Of a DNA stretch of 64,000 nucleotides, positions 1 to 20,489 are shown one piece after another (the stretch's first letter is position 1; each line of letters opens with the position of its first letter). Origin of the DNA: Eledone cirrhosa (lineage: Eukaryota). A program made the position numbers and the translations under genes. The stretch lies in assembly GCA_964016885.1 (NCBI GenBank), contig CAXHJY010000119.1, positions 5,378 to 69,377 of the forward strand. Reading direction: 5' to 3'. The notes under the pieces are model-generated. The model saw only the letters and a program-made list of their open reading frames with translations, had not been told where the DNA came from and did no database searches.

Positions 1-4487
<4,487 letters not shown>

Positions 4488-4668
4488 TAGATAAATCTAC
4501 CAAGAGTTTACGGTAGTGTCCAATCCGTATGAAGAACTCAATGTATTCCGGATATCATGGAAAGAAGAGATGTAATGAAAATCCAATTTCGGTGAAAGAT
4601 AAACGGTATACAGAGTCAAGATAAAATAAATAATGAACAAACAATTCCTTATATTAAACAAAAAAAGT

Positions 4669-4821
4669 TCACTATTTAACGATCGTTTCTAGGGCATATA
4701 TGTGCTATAATTGGTATGCATATTTAACAGATCTATGTACAAAATTATACAAAATTATACAAATTATCAAGATTAAATATACATACCTAACTCATATATA
4801 CGCCGTCTTCAGAAATAATGA
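4669..4821 (-). ncRNA. Type I hammerhead ribozyme with very long stem II (left-arm copy)
   Basis: Reverse complement of the 11381-11533 motif. Confidence 0.7.
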
Positions 4822-5591
4822 AGTATATTTATTGATAATAACAACAATTCAAAATATCAGTTCAAAATTGACCAATGAAAACACAAAGGGTTAAAAAGCA
4901 GTTTGGTGTGTGTATATACATGTAAAACCCTACACACATTTTACAATAATGTGTGTATAATATGTATGTGCATACTAAAAAGATGGATGCAAATAAAAAA
5001 TTTCAAGGTTAATATCTCTGTAAGCTTAATGCGCTGATAAGATACGCAATGATACTTATGTAGTCAAGCATATAAATATATTTTTTCTTCATACTCACAC
5101 ATATCAGTATAATCACACATACATGTGCGTATATATATAAATATACACATAACCACGAACACACAAACACACACACACCCCCCACTCACATTTATATATG
5201 TGGATATAAAATCATAAGCAAATAGAAATTAAGTCACTCACATAAACACACTGATACACACATTTCAAGATCAAGATACAGAAATTAGGTGGGAGGGGGG
5301 GGGAGGGGTCAGTATTAGGTTGTCAGACCAGACAGCCTAATATAAATGTATCTATAAATTATGAAAAATAAAAAAATAAAAACAATAAAATATATTACAT
5401 AATATAATGTACATACGCATACAGATATACATACACATACGTACATGTACGCGCACATAGAGATATCTACACATACATAGATACACACATACCTATAGTG
5501 TCCTACACACACATACATTTACACGAACATACACATACACATATAAAAAGATAAAAATACGGACACACACACGCGCAACACATACACACAT

Positions 5592-5640
<49 letters not shown>

Positions 5641-5750
5641 TATACACACACACACATAGACTCATATATATACACATACACATACATATACTTATACATA
5701 AACATATATATCCCACACTCATACCACCATGAAAACACATACAAACATCC

Positions 5751-5789
<39 letters not shown>

Positions 5790-6027
5790 TATGTATACAT
5801 ATAAACATACACACACGTACACATATATGCACATATACATACACATATACACACACACACATACACATATATATATACACACACACATAAAATACAGACA
5901 TGCACATATATATATATATATATATATATATACATTTCATTACCTTTATATATACACATAGTATATATACATACACAACCTCACTTATACACATATACAC
6001 ATAAGTTATATTACAATAATAATAAAG

Positions 6028-6064
<37 letters not shown>

Positions 6065-6203
6065 TATACACACATATACACATATATATACATACACATA
6101 CATATACATACATACATACACATACATACATACACCTAAATATAAACATATATAAATACACACATACGAATAAAGACATATATTCACACATAGACACCTA
6201 TAT

Positions 6204-6246
<43 letters not shown>

Positions 6247-6799
6247 TACCTATATACACACACATACACATACACACACATATACATATATATATATACA
6301 CACATATACACACGCACACACATACAGACACACATACACACTCACACATATATATATATATATATATATATGTGTGTATGTGAGTGTGCGCAAATACACA
6401 CATATATATACACACACACACATATAAACACACACAAACACGTACATATGCATACATGCACACACACACACATATATCACATAGATACGAAGATAAACAT
6501 ATAAATAGAGAGACATACAAATATATACAGAACCCATATACACATACATGCAAACACGCATATACATATATACATATATACACACATATATATTCCTATA
6601 TACAAGCATACACATACGCACACATATATACATATACCTACACATATATATACACCACACATTCACATACACGTACATATATAATACATATATATACATA
6701 CATATACATACATATGTATGTACAATCATATATACACACTCAATCTTACATTCATATTTACATGCTCATATATGTATTTTTATATCTAGAAATAAATAC

Positions 6800-6839
<40 letters not shown>

Positions 6840-8100
6840 ATATAGACACCCATCTACCCATATATTCATACATATACACTTACAAAAACAGATGATAATA
6901 GTATGGGGGAAAGGGGGGGGTTTGGAGAAGGGGATCAAAGTAAATATATGTTTCAAGAAACCTATAATATTTTCCATATCTTAATTCAATGTATGTTCTT
7001 ACATATTTTCAATGCTAGGAAATACGAAATCTATGCATCACAAAATAAAAAAGTATACCATTAATCATATGTCAACTAAATCAAAGATAGTCAACATATT
7101 GATTTCCAAGGTGTAAATTAGTTAGGTTTATAATATTTGAAGCAGAATTATGAAGTCAAACAGTAGTAAATTATTAATTACATTATACCTAAATTAAAGT
7201 TAATAATAGGGAAAAGAAACCCAAATAAAAATAAAATAAAGTATTACATCGGTAGTAGCATATAAATTATATGTAAACTAAGTTAAAAATTATATATTTA
7301 TTTCAATAGTATATGTTAATTAGTATATGTTAATTAGGTATACAATACATAAAGCAGATATTGTATTTCATCAATAGCATAATATAATTATATGCAAATA
7401 AAAATCAAAATTAATACGCATACACATACATATACATACACATACACATACATATACATATACATACACATATATATATATATATATACATATATATACA
7501 CACGTACATACATATATAGTCACATAAATATACATACAGATACACATACAATACACACATATATACATATACATATAGATATACATATCTTTTTCAAAAA
7601 ATTTGCACAGAATATATTAACTAGGTATATATCCAAAAACACCTCCCATTCTATGATTACATGAAATTCTGCAATTCGTCTGTACAAGGATACTAATTTT
7701 AAGCTAATTAAAATTAAAATTAAAGTTTTAGGTTGATTAAAGCTAAAACCAAATAATAAATATATTTCCAAAATGTATATTAATTAGGTCAATAATACTA
7801 AAAATTCTTTCTCCGTCATAGGATACATGATATTATTTTGTTATATTTTATCTGTAAAAGAATTATAATAAAAAAAATTTTATAATAAAAGGTTAAACTA
7901 AATTAAAAAATTATAATAAAAGGTTAAAATAAGTTAAAATTAATCTATAAATTAAATTACTGAATATATATTAGTAATATTTAAAGGTTTTTCAAAATTA
8001 ATGATTACATAATATTTTCTCATCTGTAATAAAATATTAATTAAATTAAATTTATAGGTTAACTAACATTTAAATTAAATTAAATTCTAGAATAATGTTA

Positions 8101-8486
8101 TTAATTAGGTTTATAATATTTAAATGTTTTTTTTAGTTTATGATTACACGATATAATTAATTCTGTCTTTTATTTAATAAGATATCCCTAGACTTCATTA
8201 TTTCAAATAGTTCTTGGGAACATAATCTACATTCCTTTCTATTATTTTGATAAGGGGTGGCTCTTTTGAGCACACTCCAGGTCAAATCATATTTTATATT
8301 TTTATTTTTATAACTATTGATTTTTTCTGCTAGAGATGTTGTATTAGCCAGTGCGGCATTTTTAAAGCTATGTTTGTGGGTATTATACCTTGTCTTAAAA
8401 TTGTTAGAGGTAGCTCCTATATATGAGCAAATAGAATCTTTAGTTTTAACATTACATTTATAGACTATGTTGTTAACAAGACAATT
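8101..8486 (-). pseudogene. PLE GIY-YIG endonuclease C-terminal fragment (frameshift near 8165)
   Basis: Manual translation NCLVNNIVYKCNV..SYIGATSNNFKTRYNTHKHSF..WSVLKRATPY..CRLCSQELFEI..LLNKR/ELIISCNHK; absent from the ORF track. Confidence 0.85.
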
Positions 8487-9362
8487 TTAATTTTAATTAG
8501 CTTAAAATTAGTATCCTTGTACAGACGAATTGCAGAATTTCATGTAATCATAGAATGGGAGGTGTTTTTGGATATATACCTAGTTAATATATTCTGTGCA
8601 AATTTTTTGAAAAAGATATGTATATCTATATGTATATGTATATATGTGTGTATTGTATGTGTATCTGTATGTATATTTATGTGACTATATATGTATGTAC
8701 GTGTGTATATATATGTATATATATATATATATATGTGTATGTATATGTATATGTATGTGTATGTGTATGTATATGTATGTGTATGCGTATTAATTTTGAT
8801 TTTTATTTGCATATAATTATATTATGCTATTGATGAAATACAATATCTGCTTTATGTATTGTATACCTAATTAACATATACTAATTAACATATACTATTG
8901 AAATAAATATATAATTTTTAACTTAGTTTACATATAATTTATATGCTACTACCGATGTAATACTTTATTTTATTTTTATTTGGGTTTCTTTTCCCTATTA
9001 TTAACTTTAATTAGGTATAATGTAATTAATAATTTACTACTGTTTGACTTCATAATTCTGCTTCAAATATTATAAACCTAACTAATTTACACCTTGGAAA
9101 TCAATATGTTGACTATCTTTGATTTAGTTGACATATGATTAATGTATACTTTTTTATTTTGTGATGCATAGATTTCGTATTTCCTAGCATTGAAAATATG
9201 TAAGAACATACATTGAATTAAGATATGGAAAATATTATAGGTTTCTTGAAACATATATTTACTTTGATCCCCTTCTCCAAACCCCCCCCTTTCCCCCATA
9301 CTATTATCATCTGTTTTTGTAAGTGTATATGTATGAATATATGGGTAGATGGGTGTCTATAT

Positions 9363-9399
<37 letters not shown>

Positions 9400-9952
9400 G
9401 TATTTATTTCTAGATATAAAAATACATATATGAGCATGTAAATATGAATGTAAGATTGAGTGTGTATATATGATTGTACATACATATGTATGTATATGTA
9501 TGTATATATATGTATTATATATGTACGTGTATGTGAATGTGTGGTGTATATATATGTGTAGGTATATGTATATATGTGTGCGTATGTGTATGCTTGTATA
9601 TAGGAATATATATGTGTGTATATATGTATATATGTATATGCGTGTTTGCATGTATGTGTATATGGGTTCTGTATATATTTGTATGTCTCTCTATTTATAT
9701 GTTTATCTTCGTATCTATGTGATATATGTGTGTGTGTGTGCATGTATGCATATGTACGTGTTTGTGTGTGTTTATATGTGTGTGTGTGTATATATATGTG
9801 TGTATTTGCGCACACTCACATACACACATATATATATATATATATATATATGTGTGAGTGTGTATGTGTGTCTGTATGTGTGTGCGTGTGTATATGTGTG
9901 TATATATATATATGTATATGTGTGTGTATGTGTATGTGTGTGTATATAGGTA

Positions 9953-9995
<43 letters not shown>

Positions 9996-10134
9996 ATATA
10001 GGTGTCTATGTGTGAATATATGTCTTTATTCGTATGTGTGTATTTATATATGTTTATATTTAGGTGTATGTATGTATGTGTATGTATGTATGTATATGTA
10101 TGTGTATGTATATATATGTGTATATGTGTGTATA

Positions 10135-10171
<37 letters not shown>

Positions 10172-10561
10172 CTTTATTATTATTGTAATATAACTTATGT
10201 GTATATGTGTATAAGTGAGGTTGTGTATGTATATATACTATGTGTATATATAAAGGTAATGAAATGTATATATATATATATATATATATATATGTGCATG
10301 TCTGTATTTTATGTGTGTGTGTATATATATATGTGTATGTGTGTGTGTGTATATGTGTATGTATATGTGCATATATGTGTACGTGTGTGTATGTTTATAT
10401 GTATACATATATATGTATATATATATATATATATATATAGTATATATATCTGGATGTTTGTATGTGTTTTCATGGTGGTATGAGTGTGGGATATATATGT
10501 TTATGTATAAGTATATGTATGTGTATGTGTATATATATGAGTCTATGTGTGTGTGTGTATA

Positions 10562-10612
<51 letters not shown>

Positions 10613-11380
10613 ATGTGTGTATGTGTTGCGCGTGTGTGTGTCCGTATTTTTATCTTTTTATATGTGTATGTGTATGTTCGTGTAAATGTATGTGTGTGTA
10701 GGACACTATAGGTATGTGTGTATCTATGTATGTGTAGATATCTCTATGTGCGCGTACATGTACGTATGTGTATGTATATCTGTATGCGTATGTACATTAT
10801 ATTATGTAATATATTTTATTGTTTTTATTTTTTATTTTTCATAATTTATAGATACATTTATATTAGGCTGTCTGTCTGACAACCTAATACTGACCCCTCC
10901 CCCCCCCTCCCACCTAATTTCTGTATCTTGATCTTGAAATGTGTGTATCAGTGTGTTTATGTGAGTGACTTAATTTCTATTTGCTTATGATTTTATATCC
11001 ACATATATAAATGTGAGTGGGGGGTGTGTGTGTGTTTGTGTGTTCGTGGTTATGTGTATATTTATATATATACGCACATGTATGTGTGATTATACTGATA
11101 TGTGTGAGTATGAAGAAAAAATATATTTATATGCTTGACTACATAAGTATCATTGCGTATCTTATCAGCGCATTAAGCTTACAGAGATATTAACCTTGAA
11201 ATTTTTTATTTGCATCCATCTTTTTAGTATGCACATACATATTATACACACATTATTGTAAAATGTGTGTAGGGTTTTACATGTATATACACACACCAAA
11301 CTGCTTTTTAACCCTTTGTGTTTTCATTGGTCAATTTTGAACTGATATTTTGAATTGTTGTTATTATCAATAAATATACT

Positions 11381-11533
11381 TCATTATTTCTGAAGACGGC
11401 GTATATATGAGTTAGGTATGTATATTTAATCTTGATAATTTGTATAATTTTGTATAATTTTGTACATAGATCTGTTAAATATGCATACCAATTATAGCAC
11501 ATATATGCCCTAGAAACGATCGTTAAATAGTGA
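11381..11533 (+). ncRNA. Type I hammerhead ribozyme with very long stem II (right-arm copy)
   Basis: tcattattt-CTGAAGA-[116-nt hairpin]-GAAA-CGATCG-TT-aaatagtga; 9-bp stem I; palindromic stem III ACGATCGT; predicted GUU site at 11524. Confidence 0.72.
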
Positions 11534-14063: not shown

Positions 14064-15160
14064 TCCAAGTTTCTCATCAACCGTGTCCCGCATGTGCAAC
14101 CCCAAAGAACTAGAAAGACACATACAACACTTCATCCACCGTATGCAGTTCTCTGGTTACAATCAGAGAGATAAGATCAGAGTATATAGAGGAGCCAGAA
14201 CCAAATGGGAAAAAATGGTAAATAATGATACAAATGGGACCTGCCCCTCGTACAGGAGCAAATTTTGGAATAGAATAGAAAGAACTAGGAATAAGGTTAA
14301 TAGAATAAACTCATGGTATGATAGTAGAAAGACCAGGTACCTCCATAAAAATACTTATTAGCAATACATACCGTTTTCAAAGACCTCCCTGTATAGACAA
14401 GAAATGTATAAACTGTAAAATAAGCCCCCATATTAACTGTAAAACTAGAAATGTAGTATATAGCATAAGATGTACTGATGGACAATGTAGAGATAAGAAT
14501 ATAGTGTAATATAGGTGAGACAGCTCGTAGTATAGGAGAACGGATAAATGAACACTGGCGAGAGCTTCAAGATAGTAAAGAATCATCTGTACTCTGCCAA
14601 CATGCTAAAATAGAACATAAGGGTAAATTAAAGAACATAGAAATAAAAATCGAATCTACACACAGAAAAGACGCAATGTTTAGACAAATCACAGAGGCAA
14701 TAAACATAAATGAACTCCAACCAAAATTAAATAGAAAGCATGAATGGAATAGCAACATCACAACTTACAAGTAAGGACAAAATGAAAACACACACACACT
14801 TAGAACAAACAACCAACCAGTAACATGTAAATAAACAAATAAATAAACAAATAGAAATACACACATGTAACACATGCGCAAACTAAGCACACAACACACA
14901 CAAAAACAAGATGGCGTAGGACAGAACAAAGGAGAGGCACAAAAACAAAGAAAAGAATCCCCAGTCACTGAAGAGGTCACAGAATGTGTGACGAAAGAAC
15001 TTTGACAATATATGAACAATCGTCTGGTTGTGGAACCAACCAACCAATCGGAAATTTATAAATTCCTAAATTTATAAATTTAATTTATTATAAATTGAAG
15101 TGAAAGCAACTGGTGCGTGTGTTTCTTATTGGCAACATGACCCTCCCAAAGTATAACATA
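14064..15160 (+). mobile_element. 5'-truncated Penelope-like element (RT thumb, Cys linker, GIY-YIG, 3' UTR with HHR)
   Basis: [26 protein letters not shown]; PCIDKKCINC..NCKTRNVVYSIRC; IGETARSIGERINEH; LNRKHEW; contains stops and a deletion. Confidence 0.88.
14964..15006 (+). ncRNA. Minimal type I hammerhead in PLE 3' UTR
   Basis: gtca-CTGAAGA-g-gtcac..gtgac-GAAA-gaac-TT-tgac. Confidence 0.6.
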
Positions 15161-15519
15161 TATATATATATATATTAGTTTTGCGAGGTCTTTGATATGA
15201 AATCGTGTGTCGAAACAAATATTGTTATACTTGGGGAGGGTCATATTTTTGTAATATTGCCAGAATTAATAACAGAACACACTTACTGTTTGGTTGGTTT
15301 TCGCTTTTCACTTCTGTGTCTTGTATCTCGGTAATCTAATTTATTCGGTCCGCAATGTTGCCATTGACTGACCAACGGTCAAAAATACAGATACAATATA
15401 GACACAAACACATATATAAAGGAACCATCGACTTTTCGTCAAATCGGACCGAGGAAACAATGTTTCCGTTGGTCTTTCCAATTGCTAATACTATCTATCG
15501 GTCGCAATTCCAGGTAGAA

Positions 15520-15640
15520 GGAGCAACGTGAAATAAAGTATCTTGCTCAAGGACATAACGCATCGCCTGGTCCAGGAATCGAACTCACAACCTCACGATT
15601 GCGAATCCAATTCTCTAACCACTCAGCCACACGCCTTCAC
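15520..15640 (-). mobile_element. tRNA-derived SINE fragment (same family as 59927-60070)
   Basis: Reverse complement reads ggcgtgtggctgagtggttagag..gtgagttcgattcc (Pol III A/B boxes) then ccttgagcaagatactttatttcacgttgctcc. Confidence 0.75.
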
Positions 15641-15649
15641 ATATATATA

Positions 15650-18600
15650 GTTTATCAAAGTTCTTTCGTTGCACATCTACAGCATCGTCAGTGGTGCTAT
15701 GTTTCCTTCCGTTGCATTGTATTTTCTACGCCATCTTTATTTAGTCTGTTTATATATTTATTTATTTGTTTATTTTATTTTGTCTTCTTTGCGCATGCGT
15801 TTGCGTGTGTGTATAGTGTTTTGTTTGATGTGTGTTCGTGATTGGATGGCTGTGTATCGGTTAATGTATTCTATCTTTACTAGTGTGTGTTTATATGTGT
15901 TTGTTGTTATTGTGCTTGTGTATGTATTTATTTATTTATTTATTTATTTATACTTCTCTTAGGTCAGTGTTGTTTGTTTGGGTGTTGTTGTTATTCCATT
16001 CATTTTTTCTGTTTAGCCTTGGCCTTCTAAGTTCTATTTCACTGGTCTTTCTGATTTGCCTATCTGCTGGGTCATTTCTATGTTTAGATATTATTCTAAT
16101 TTCTATGTTGTCTATGTTACCGTCGTGTTGTTGTCTGCATGTTCGTATAGTACTGAAACCGTTTTTTCGTCTTTTTAGTTCCCCCCAGTGTTGGTCTATC
16201 CTTTCACCTATGCTACGAGCTCTCTCGCCTATGTATGTTGTTGTCATGTTTCTGCAAGTACCCTCTGTACATCTTATGCTATTGACTACGTTTCTAGTTT
16301 TACAGTTTATCCGGGGTTTACTCTACATATGATACATTTCCTATTAGTACAGTGGGTTTTCTTAAAAGGGTAGGTTTTGCTGATCAGGGATTTTTATGGT
16401 GGTTCCTGGCTTTTCTACCACCTTAATCTTTAAGTGGGTCTTTCTCAGGGCCTTTCTACATTGGTTAGCTAATTTCCCTCCAGGGGTAGCGCCCACAAAC
16501 ATGACACTCTGGTATCTCTGGTTGTCGTACCATGAGGTGTTTTTCCTTATCTTATGTCTAGCCCTATCTAAGCTATTCCATGATTTGCTCCTGTATAAAG
16601 GGCAAATTCCTTTCATGTCCAGTTCTATGAGGGTCTTATACTTCTCCGTGGCTCCTTCGTATACTCTGATTCTGTCTCTTTGGTTGTAGCCAGAGAACTG
16701 CATGCGGTTGATGAAGTGTTGGATGTGTCTTTCCATTTCTGTTGGGTCGCACATGCGGGACACGTTCTTCATCACTCGTTCCAAGTCTGCGATCAGAATA
16801 TTAAACTTAGCACTACTGGACATTGCTGAGTTTTTGAATATCAGGTATTTGGAGGCCATGGGTGAGTGGAGAATTTGGGCTCTCTCATCTATAGTGTTAA
16901 TCCAGAGTTCCGTGTCTAATACAGGTAGTCTATTGTTAGGGTGTTTGGAAGGGTAGTCGAGAGTTACAGTTATACTCTGGTGTATGGAATTAGCTATCTG
17001 CTGGATGCTTTCCATTGTGCTACGTTCTAAATCAAACTTGTTAGTGCTCTCTTGTGGAGATGTTCTTATAACTATATTGATATCGTCTACGTAACGAGAG
17101 TACATGATGAGGTCTATGGAGCTCTTATTAAGGAGATCTTTAAGTCTCCTTTCCCACCATACCATAAAAAGGTTGGCAACGTCACCAGCTATGCTGACGC
17201 CAATGGCTGCTCCTTCATTTTGGGTGTAGATCTTCTCGTTGAACTTGAATATGTGGCCCTTTAGGCTAGTTTTGATACTAGCCCCTATTGCATGTGCGAC
17301 CATTTTTCTTACCTGATCATTGTTTTGGGGTGTCCGTATAGCTTTGGTCCACCCAATCAACCTTCCCATGGGAGTCTTTTTAGCCATTGATGTTATGGTG
17401 GGGTGGGGTCTACCTCTTATGGGTCTACTGGGGCAGAAACGTCTAAGGTTATGGCTGTCTAGGTAGTCAGTGTCGTAGGTAAGTCTAAGTAGGAGGTCCA
17501 GTTCGTCTGTGTCGACGTCGCAGAACTCCACCTCACTCTCAATGATCATCTCCACACATTTTTCCACAGCAAAATCAATGTTATTGGATGGGTACAGTGA
17601 TACTACATCCATGCTGCCTATTATGCAGTTGGATAGGTTCCTGTTTTGTTGCACTCACTGATTCTGCTGAGGAGGTCCTCTGTACTGTCACATACATCTG
17701 AGGACATCTTGATTATGGGGCGTATAACCATTGAGAGGAAGTAGGAGATCCTGTAGTTGTTAGCTATATTTACTCCGGATACGGGTCTTGTTGGTGGTCC
17801 TGTTGTCGGGTCGTCGACTTTCTTGTGGTCTTTGCGGAGTCCATACAAGGGTGGTATGCCATTGTTAGACGCCTGGAAGTTGTTGGCAGTGCGTCTGCTT
17901 GGCTTTAGGATGTCGGTCCACATCATCATGTGAGCGTTGAGGATTTTCTCTCTCCCATCATGTATTTGCTGTGCAATTTCGCTCGTGTTGGTGATGTGGG
18001 GTTGCATAGCCTTGATGTAGTTCGGCATGCTATCTATTGACATCTTACTAGACTTATCCGTGGGTAGACATACTACCTCACCATCCCTTGTGCGCTGCTT
18101 GAGGCTAACCAAGCCTTCTACAGGTTTCCTCCAAGTTGTTGGGCCTCTGGTCGGCTGTCTCTTAGTATACCGGTATACTATTTGTCTAATCTTATTTCTA
18201 GCTATGGTGAACTGTGCCTCTGTCTCGTCATCTATTTGATGTGGTATGCAAACTCTTTTATTAAAGGGTAACCTCGTAGGATAGATATTACCCATCTTAT
18301 ATGTGGGTTGAAGAATAGTTTCTCTAAGGGGTTGTCATTATATTTATCGTCATAGTTGTGTGTGTTGCTATTATTGTTATTATGGTGGTTGTTGTTGTTC
18401 CTATCATTAGCATTATTATTATTGTCATGATTGCTAGATGTATTGTTGCTGTGATTGTTAGATGTATCGTTGTTATGATTGCTACATGTATTGTTGCTGT
18501 GATTGTTGTTTTCTTCACCGTTATTGTTGTTGTTACTGTATTTCTACCGTTGTGGTTGTTACTTTTATTATGTTTCTTGTTTTTGTTGTGTCTATCATTA

Positions 18601-18719
18601 ATGTTGCTACATGTATTATTTTCTATTATTACCACTGTGGTTGTTGTTGTTGTTGTTATTTGTATTGTTATCGTTATTACTACTGTGGGCGCTGCTGCTG
18701 TGTCGGTAGTTAATGTTTC

Positions 18720-18753
<34 letters not shown>

Positions 18754-18760
18754 GTGGTTG
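15650..18760 (-). mobile_element. Penelope-like element, frameshifted RT + GIY-YIG ORF with Asn-rich N-terminal linker
   Basis: ORFs 17621-18295 (PTDKSSKM, PPLYGLRKDHK, PTRPV), 16362-17654 (SMDVVSLYPS, QNEGAAIG, RYVDD), 15948-16247 (YIGERARSIGERIDQH, LNRKNEW); (AAT/AAC)-rich 18325-18760. Confidence 0.93.
15654..15695 (-). ncRNA. Minimal type I hammerhead in 3' UTR of the minus-strand PLE
   Basis: Reverse complement: acca-CTGACGA-tgc..gca-ac-GAAA-gaac-TT-tgat; homologous to 14964-15006. Confidence 0.55.
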
Positions 18761-18764
18761 TCGT

Positions 18765-19040
18765 TATATACATATGCATATATATATATGAATATATATA
18801 TATATATATATATATGCATATATATATATATATATATGCATATATATATATATATATATATGCATATATATATATATATATGCATATATATATATATATA
18901 TATATATGCATATATATATATATATATATATATATGCATATATATATATATGCATATATATATATATATATATATGCATATATATATATATATATGCATA
19001 TATATATATATATATATATGCATATATATATATATATATA

Positions 19041-19082
<42 letters not shown>

Positions 19083-19102
19083 TATATATATATATATATA
19101 TA

Positions 19103-19148
<46 letters not shown>

Positions 19149-19170
19149 TATATATATATATATATATCTA

Positions 19171-19220
<50 letters not shown>
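18765..19220. repeat. (TA)n tract with GC interruptions (TATGCATA)
   Basis: Directly visible. Confidence 0.95.
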
Positions 19221-19224
<4 letters not shown>

Positions 19225-19457
19225 TTAGAAACACACAGATGCATGTGGACACACACATATATACATGAATGCATCCGCACCCAACTGTGAGTTAAGGGTG
19301 CCAACTTCACCGATGTTGCTCAATGAATGACTGGGACAGACCAATTCAGTTGAACTAGACTGAACCAGTATCAGAGTTAAAAATACATTATGAAGAGAGA
19401 AGAAACATTTAGATATAATTAGTAATAAAATGTATCATACCTAAACTGCTCCTAAAT

Positions 19458-19547
19458 TCCTCGACTACGTAGTTTCGTGGCATAAACAAAAACAATATAT
19501 CATAAAGATATAGAGTCCTTGCGAGGTCTGCCGACTTATCAAGAGGA
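19458..19547 (-). ncRNA. Type I hammerhead, U3-A8 core variant, branched stem II
   Basis: Reverse complement: tcctc-TTGATAA-gtcggca..tgccac-GAAA-CTACGTAG-TC-gagga. Confidence 0.72.
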
Positions 19548-20052
19548 TACCTCATTTTACTAGTCTCAAGAACGCGTCTACACGACGTGAGAAAGAATCC
19601 CAAAAGGCGGAGGGGGAGATAGTCACGCGATATAACGGTCGAGAAACAGAGCTAAGCCTCTTATAACCTCGAAGAAAATACCACGGAGGCGGAGGGGGTA
19701 TTTATATCGAGGCCGCAGAAGAGGTGGTGAAGAAGGCGAGAAGTATGAGTAATGGAAGCTTACCAGCTGTCCCCACACTTCAAAGATTGCTCGACCAGAG
19801 GGAGTTATTAACAATATATTTAGAAACAGACAGATACATGTGGACACACACATATATACATGAATGCATCCGCACCCAACTGTGAGTTAAGGGTGCCAAC
19901 TTCACCGATGTTGCTCAATGAATGACTGGGACAGACCAATTCAGTTGAACTAGACTGAACCAGTATCAGAGTTAAAAATACATTATGAAGAGAGAAGAAA
20001 CATTTAGATATAATTAGTAATAAAATGTATCATACCTAAACTGCTCCTAAAT

Positions 20053-20142
20053 TCCTCGACTACGTAGTTTCGTGGCATAAACAAAAACAATATATCATAA
20101 AGATATAGAGTCCTTGCGAGGTCTGCCGACTTATCAAGAGGA
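20053..20142 (-). ncRNA. Second copy of the U3-A8 hammerhead
   Basis: Same sequence as 19458-19547. Confidence 0.72.
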
Positions 20143-20489
20143 TACCTCATTTTACTAGTCTCAAGAACGCGTCTACACGACGTGAGAAAGAATCCCAAAA
20201 GGCGGAGGGGGAGATAGTCACGCGATATAACGGTCGAGAAACAGAGCTAAGCCTCTTATAACCTCGAAGAAAATACCACGGAGGCGGAGGGGGTATTTAT
20301 ATCGAGAAAAACTCCGCCTAACATGTGATTTCACATATATGCATATATATATATATATATGCATATATATACATATACATGCATATATATACATATGCAT
20401 ATATACATATATATGCATATATGTATATATATATATATATGCATATACATACATATATATGCATATATATGTGTGTGTGTGTGTGTGTA

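Follow-up and report, generated by a model that had tools for sequence, protein, structure and literature searches.

The window analysed here, a 64,000-nt stretch of the Eledone cirrhosa genome, contains on its minus strand a tandem repeat with a 595-bp period and 1.83 units (20306-19217), flanked by two TA microsatellites. One of these, a (TA)n/(TATGCA) tract at 18765..19216, is the target at the 3' end of the repeat, and the other, a TA-rich tract at 20334..20471, lies on its 5' side. With the unit numbered from u1 at 20306 to u595 at 19712, the repeat (19217..20306, minus strand; locus L001) is a one-armed retrozyme insertion into (TA)n comprising one full unit (u1-u595, 19712..20306) and a second, partial one (u1-u495, 19217..19711), both on the minus strand, with its 3' end at the position designated site B below. 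The two copies recorded in the first-pass annotation are real, having 494 bp in common (19218-19711 vs 19813-20306) with 2 mismatches. The longest ATG frames of the unit, 76 aa in sense and 46 aa in antisense, mark it as non-coding. The TATAAATA box proposed earlier as a TATA box is present in both window copies (20301-20294 and 19706-19699, minus strand); its reading as a promoter element did not hold, the box not being conserved in the family, where 37 of 112 young units read TATGAAT or TGTGAAT at this position and the old ones mostly CATAAAT. CCCCCTCCGCC occurs twice (20293-20283 and about 20213-20203, minus strand) and is kept in young and old subfamilies, and its copies, better conserved than the TATA box, are candidate promoter boxes.

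At the 5' junction lies a short foreign piece (20307..20333, minus strand), joined with a 4-nt overlap, whose 20-nt core has one other genomic occurrence, at about 1495-1525 of locus L256, which resembles a LINE RT frame by reading; a template jump is a possible origin of this join. The window also holds a GC-rich fragment (20520-21500) with a 166-aa minus-strand frame (20738-21238) without a Pfam match, which looks like the end of a non-LTR element, and two further hammerhead-like motifs of other repeat families, found by eye, with a CUGAUGA core at 21555-21590 (minus strand) and a CUGAAGA core at 22245-22330 (plus strand).

Each copy of the 595-bp repeat carries a type I hammerhead with a U3-A8 core on the minus strand: hammerhead 1 at 20053..20149, with a predicted cut after 20058, and the identical hammerhead 2 at 19458..19554, with a predicted cut after 19463. 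The UUGAUAA motif reported earlier in both copies was recovered with all of its stems. In hammerhead 1, stem I is formed by 20142-20138 with 20057-20053 (UCCUC/GAGGA), the core UUGAUAA occupies 20137-20131 and GAAA 20071-20068, and stem II pairs 20130-20124 with 20077-20072, with one bulged C. The palindromic stem III, ACUACGUAGU, and the GUC site (C17 at 20058, and at 19463 in the second copy) are both present as first described. The elements of a type I hammerhead, namely paired positions 3 and 8, GAAA, an NUH site, and stems I-III, are all found, with U3-A8 as an accepted variant. Cleavage at the two GUC sites is predicted to free exactly 595 nt, a monomer spanning 19463..20057 (minus strand). 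No hammerhead match was returned by Rfam at the repeat, and the earlier expectation that CUGANGA-based searches would miss this ribozyme extends to Rfam as well.

The architecture of stem II differs from that first proposed. Instead of two sub-hairpins, the prediction gives one long hairpin extending the stem (20082..20116, minus strand), which is a perfect 15 bp in the old-subfamily copy L197, where the region reaches a z of -4.2 vs shuffles, and in which one pair varies among U-A, U-G, and C-G across subfamilies. The predicted fold does not contain the 'cct-cgca-agg' sub-hairpin, which the older subfamily could not form at all; the 'cct' strand lies more likely in a 6-bp pseudoknot with the 5' flank, in which UGAGGU, directly 5' of stem I (20144..20149, minus strand), would pair with ACCUCG in the stem II internal loop (20117..20122, minus strand). 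Across 27 rows, hand-picked to span subfamilies from 72 source copies of which 25 are older or intermediate, 96.9% of the cells of this knot are paired, and the changes are confined to one pair that varies among U-A, U-G, and C-G and to its neighbour, which shows a single G-C to A-U replacement. Only 1 of the 12 knot positions differs between the young and old majorities, with pairing kept. Because its support consists of conservation plus about three covariation events, the pseudoknot is counted here as a prediction.

Taken alone, the young hammerhead region folds modestly better than shuffled sequences (z -1.6), and the catalytic fold without the knot lies above the predicted minimum (-22.8 vs -23.9 kcal/mol). 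Folded as a circle, the 595-nt monomer reaches -175.3 kcal/mol vs -134.7 +/- 7.9 for 20 shuffles. The predicted circle adopts a competing GAGG/CCUC hairpin, made from the same strands as the knot, which leaves the ribozyme unformed and could keep the circle from cutting itself. Pairing of the stem III palindrome between two ribozymes is predicted at -12.9 kcal/mol.

The unit belongs to a large genomic family. A search of the 3.0-Gb genome returned 1,290 candidates, of which 38 were scored, giving 171 matches that are 95-100% alike among the 150 matches listed, and the 24-nt 3' half of the ribozyme has 7,300 exact matches and the 19-nt 5' half 6,311, with 0 for the reversed-pattern controls; the abundance of the motif is not due to chance, and further copies exist in the thousands. 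By exact genomic counts of the core, U3-A8 occurs 6,311 times, C3-A8 and U3-G8 8 times each, and C3-G8 0 times, so other copies do not show random core substitutions. The first-pass annotation took positions 3 and 8 to be covariant; since the 595-bp family has no C3-G8 copy, U3-A8 is in this family a fixed founder state and does not covary. Single core mutants arise without spreading, while at many other sites the minor allele frequency among the sampled insertions ranges from several to tens of per cent. Two adjacent units of one array (C19:18237721 and 18238312) are both U3-G8; here the core change was present in the template of that insertion and did not spread.

An older subfamily is 73-83% alike to the young one and keeps the unit size and the two ends described below; cut-to-cut length stays at 585-607 bp in 137 of 138 units across 25% divergence. 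Between majorities built from 23 young and 25 old units, the ribozyme frame differs at 1 of 44 positions and the rest of the unit at 123 of 518 (p=2e-4), a comparison of sequences that supports selection on the ribozyme frame. A functional hammerhead is supported because the frame is conserved and core mutants have not been amplified, in line with the earlier preference for function rather than decay.

To describe how these units are inserted, 109 sites were scored (36 best BLAST hits, 65 exact-motif hits within the initial 60 Mb of contig C1, and 8 C3 variants), excluding locus records that overlapped and two sites truncated by the end of a locus; L103 and L106 are both counted and may be one duplicated event. 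The 3' ends fall at either of two positions about 165 nt apart, u329 (site A; 19970..19980, minus strand, internal in the window copy) or u493-501 (site B; 19806..19814, minus strand, used at 19217 by the window insertion), and 157 of the 162 A or B ends directly abut (TA)n, the ends overlapping the target by a short TA-like stretch. The 63 two-armed insertions comprise 56 A+B, 2 A+A, no B+B, and 5 with one other end, which places A+B in 56 of the 58 that can be classified (p=6e-15 vs independent choice). The 46 one-armed insertions end at A (22), at B (19), or elsewhere (5). The 5' ends are variable and the insertions form dispersed short arrays; 14 of 144 arms begin just past the cut site, a weak enrichment over the roughly 9 expected (p=0.07). 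A separate cluster of 5' ends at u399-433 (19 of 144 arms in u399-428) sits at the foot of a predicted GC-rich hairpin and is possibly an RT stall or joining hotspot.

A comparable layout is found in other repeats. An unrelated 422-bp hammerhead retrozyme with a CUGACGA core forms one two-armed insertion at 23355-28790 of the window. Copies of its family are nearly 100% identical, and their ends lie +216-219 and +274-275 from the cut site. Of 20 insertions fetched, 13 were complete and two-armed, and all 13 had one of these ends on each arm (5 were one-armed and 2 were cut). The PLE family discussed below has one site per arm in 5 of 7 cases, by our reading. Elsewhere in the window, a large inverted repeat lies between long TA runs at 4700-11500, with arms 5760-6834 and 9365-10439 that are 100% identical, and may be another two-armed insertion.

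Individual insertions carry a single haplotype. In 103 young insertions compared at 45 polymorphic sites, units within one insertion disagree in 33 of 2,800 polymorphic-site observations, where 675 would be expected if they were independent, and arm disagrees with arm in 16 of 1,311, where 231 would be expected. Twenty-four variants private to one insertion (that is, private among the 103 sampled, out of several thousand copies) sit in all of its units, up to 7, and 11 of them extend across both arms. At least one cut site is crossed by 133 of 144 arms, and two or more by 67, up to 8, a share that is inflated by the choice of sites by best match or exact ribozyme motif. With so many arms passing one cut site and about half of these passing several, a linear monomer is excluded as template. 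The uniform arms, the private variants, and the crossing of cut sites would together likely be explained by a monomer circle, as proposed in PMC7229834. Closed 620-nt contigs in runs X4 and X6 were considered as circles and set aside as uninformative about RNA, the same runs containing the PLE at similar low depth, and a loose end in X1 had no match in the genome.

Taken together, we consider it probable that the 595-bp repeat is a non-coding, high-copy element of the animal-retrozyme class, predicted to be cleaved by its U3-A8 hammerhead to monomers that likely become circles, which a Penelope-like RT-endonuclease acting in trans likely copies into (TA)n. In such a cycle, the unit would be transcribed into tandem RNA and cleaved to monomers, with help from the 6-bp pseudoknot and possibly from dimer pairing of the palindromic stem III, and ligation would likely close the monomer into a circle. 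Both DNA ends at a (TA)n break would then prime on the same RNA, one at u329 and the other at u493-501, and the enzyme, likely supplied in trans by a Penelope-like element, would go on copying round the circle, stopping when the two cDNAs meet and are joined back to back.

The same element and helper could also work from a linear multimer that is transcribed off a tandem array and left uncut, with the ribozyme acting rarely or at another step and no circle needed. The anole PLE uses unprocessed RNA, its dominant substrate in vitro, and its hammerhead mutants still insert in vitro (PMC11167929); in the present family most RT passes read through the cut site, and source arrays are uniform, so that uniform insertions could come from a homogeneous array. 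However, a new variant found in every unit of both arms, as in the 24 private cases with up to 7 units, needs a single-unit template, and without a single-unit step arrays should turn mosaic, which they rarely are. Core mutants, moreover, never amplify, and the ribozyme therefore appears to be needed in the cycle. On this evidence we regard the multimer as an unlikely template.

The candidate helper family is represented next to the repeat by a separate, 5'-truncated and frameshifted Penelope-like element (PLE; 15140..18760, minus strand), with an RT at 16362-17654, a GIY-YIG-type EN region at 15948-16322, and a minimal CUGACGA hammerhead near 15655-15696. Its RT gives only a weak RVT_1 match, below the Pfam cut-off, a CX4CxxC linker is found in the PLE-family locus L061, and the EN label is by reading of the sequence; the element has the feature set of the Neptune/Nematis type (RT, CX2-5CxxC linker, and C-terminal GIY-YIG EN). 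Its family is very young, has a 4,132-bp period with RT, linker, and EN region, and ends in (TA)n. Autonomous PLEs are present in the genome (27,189 candidates, 98 scored), many with long open frames, and a PLE of the neighbouring family's type is the likely, candidate helper; a link between retrozymes and PLEs has been argued from vertebrates (10.64898/2026.07.22.740005). Two likenesses were rejected as recognition signals for being of low complexity, a 33-nt TA/TG-rich stretch shared by the unit and the 3' region of the PLE (score 43, against a highest score of 36 in 100 shuffles) and a TA/TG-rich resemblance between the 595-bp and 422-bp units. Two PLE subfamilies stand back to back here (15140-18760, minus strand, and 14064-15160, plus strand), each with a minimal hammerhead and with EN regions 49% identical, and a SINE-like piece near 15420-15640 interrupts the 3' region of the minus-strand copy.

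The first-pass annotation left a choice between a longer retrozyme and a PLE pseudo-LTR, and the retrozyme reading is the one that held. The unit would be a solo pseudo-LTR if an autonomous PLE with the same ribozyme existed and were absent from our sample, which is small; non-autonomous PLEs resembling autonomous 3' ends are described in PMC8557442, and of 57 retrozyme families in Xenopus, 24 had matches to known TEs, almost exclusively PLEs (10.64898/2026.07.22.740005). Yet none of the 31 fetched loci of the neighbouring PLE family contains the 595-bp unit, and direct linkage to a PLE frame, named earlier as a point to check, was found in only 1 of 176 locus records with the unit, themselves a sample of copies. 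In that locus (L258; C1:141987500-141993800), a PLE arm is joined to a retrozyme arm at 2347-5083, with TA at both outer ends; the PLE arm ends at the PLE's own site and the retrozyme arm at B. The PLE part, with its own hammerhead, resembles the young copy at 87% and none of the copies compared at more than 94%, which suggests that it may be older than the retrozyme, and the locus is possibly a single chimeric event. A relaxed pattern with a shorter stem II gave 4 matches, all deleted copies of the 595-bp family, and the constancy of unit length noted above also speaks against this origin, which we consider quite improbable. Least credible of all is an inert satellite whose ribozyme-like motif has decayed and whose spread and homogenisation took place at the DNA level. 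Unequal exchange is able to homogenise tandem copies (a point discussed in 10.64898/2026.07.22.740005), but the satellite reading is opposed by the dispersed short arrays, the fixed 3' ends at (TA)n with variable 5' ends, the A+B pairing, and the conservation of the ribozyme frame relative to the rest of the unit.

Variation in the retrozyme family is skewed. Substitution polymorphisms on the RNA strand comprise 30 A/G vs 11 C/T (p=5e-5), and inner-branch changes 49 A>G vs 25 T>C, with G>A and C>T even (parsimony, 90 units, midpoint-rooted). No A-to-G excess was found inside arrays (17 vs 36) or in the PLE. In the predicted circle, 15 of 18 A/G sites are paired with U (p=0.06). Half of the sites (9 of 18) are followed by G on the 3' side (p=0.004), and the 5' neighbours of the sites are without depletion of G. 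ADAR has a neighbour preference around the edited A. The excess can come from selection on pairing (A-U to G-U) or from A-to-I editing of the template, and editing is a tentative explanation, the balance leaning against it. A fuller version of the circle reading, in which a knotted U3-A8 circle is copied by a dimer of a Penelope-type enzyme, with each break end on a different start site, and is diversified by A-to-I editing fixed through reverse transcription, is in its entirety doubtful; if true, the family would document in the genome both strand-coupled rolling-circle retrotransposition and heritable RNA editing.

The U3-A8 core and the class of element are already known. Our literature search, limited largely to openly available papers without their supplements, which may hold similar ribozymes, returned no paper that treats the 595-bp family, the pairing of one site per arm, or ADAR in connection with retrozymes, and ribozymes are without mention in the portion of PMC13282606 consulted. 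As far as the literature was searched, the architecture of a knot plus a long stem II and the insertion record of one site per arm and one template are new. The value of the family lies in this insertion record, in which thousands of young copies yield sharp predictions, namely two start sites, with one for each DNA end, and a single template molecule. The predicted knot would be a ribozyme architecture missed by CUGANGA-based searches and Rfam. Because the RNA would be 595 nt long and the candidate helper has an intact frame, in vitro testing is within direct reach.

With regard to its core, U3-A8 is real, and its novelty was overstated in the first reading. Perreault et al. 2011 (PMC3088659) describe natural U3-A8 covariation, stated to be active in vitro, and Cervera and de la Pena 2014 (PMC4209133) about 1,300 U3-A8 matches in Schistosoma, tied to a PLE. 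Pseudoknots between stems I and II are reported in PMC3088659 for all three hammerhead types, with knots needed for fast cleavage in other hammerheads; the knot predicted here differs in joining the 5' flank of stem I to the stem II internal loop, followed by a 15-bp hairpin, and in belonging to a mobile animal repeat. The PLE hammerheads of PMC4209133 share the U3-A8 core (in Schistosoma), the bulge in stem II and the stem III palindrome (in Drosophila virilis), and a proposed circular template. However, they flank an RT-EN frame and are mostly minimal, whereas the present ribozyme has a 5-bp stem I, a stem III of at least 3 bp, and no frame.

The 595-bp repeat has the features of animal retrozymes, namely tandem hammerhead units, absence of coding capacity, dispersed multi-copy insertions with retrotransposition-type ends, and autonomous PLEs in the genome. 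With the animal non-LTR retrozymes of PMC7229834 and 10.64898/2026.07.22.740005 it shares the non-coding tandem unit with one type I hammerhead each, the palindromic stem III, thousands of copies, co-occurring PLEs, and a strongly self-paired predicted circle; circles have been shown for other animal retrozymes (PMC7229834), and of 9 Xenopus retrozyme dimers assayed in vitro only 1 cleaved (10.64898/2026.07.22.740005). At 595 nt it is larger than invertebrate examples of 170-400 nt and lies within the 51-972 bp range of 10.64898/2026.07.22.740005. It differs from animal retrozymes in its U3-A8 core, its long stem II extension, and a predicted pseudoknot replacing the loop-loop contact. A strict (TA)n target, two fixed ends, and a two-armed layout were also not found in the passages of these two sources that were compared.

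The mode of insertion is closest to that of PLEs, whose tandem and inverted copying, like a possible copying of retrozymes from circles by PLE enzymes, is named as open in 10.64898/2026.07.22.740005, PMC8557442, and PMC7229834. As in PMC11167929 and PMC8557442, RT would start internally at two sites, a 'tail' lies at one end, targets are AT-rich, and copies are tandem and inverted. Craig et al. 2021 (PMC8557442), who also describe the CX2-5CxxC linker, give PLE tails of 30-40 bp, often at one end only, and Frangieh et al. 2024 (PMC11167929) report two internal RT start sites behind the 'tail' of the anole PLE. The tail of the retrozyme family is longer, at about 165-172 nt vs 30-40 in these PLEs, and while the choice of start site showed no strand difference in vitro (PMC11167929), the two arms of the insertions described here almost always differ.
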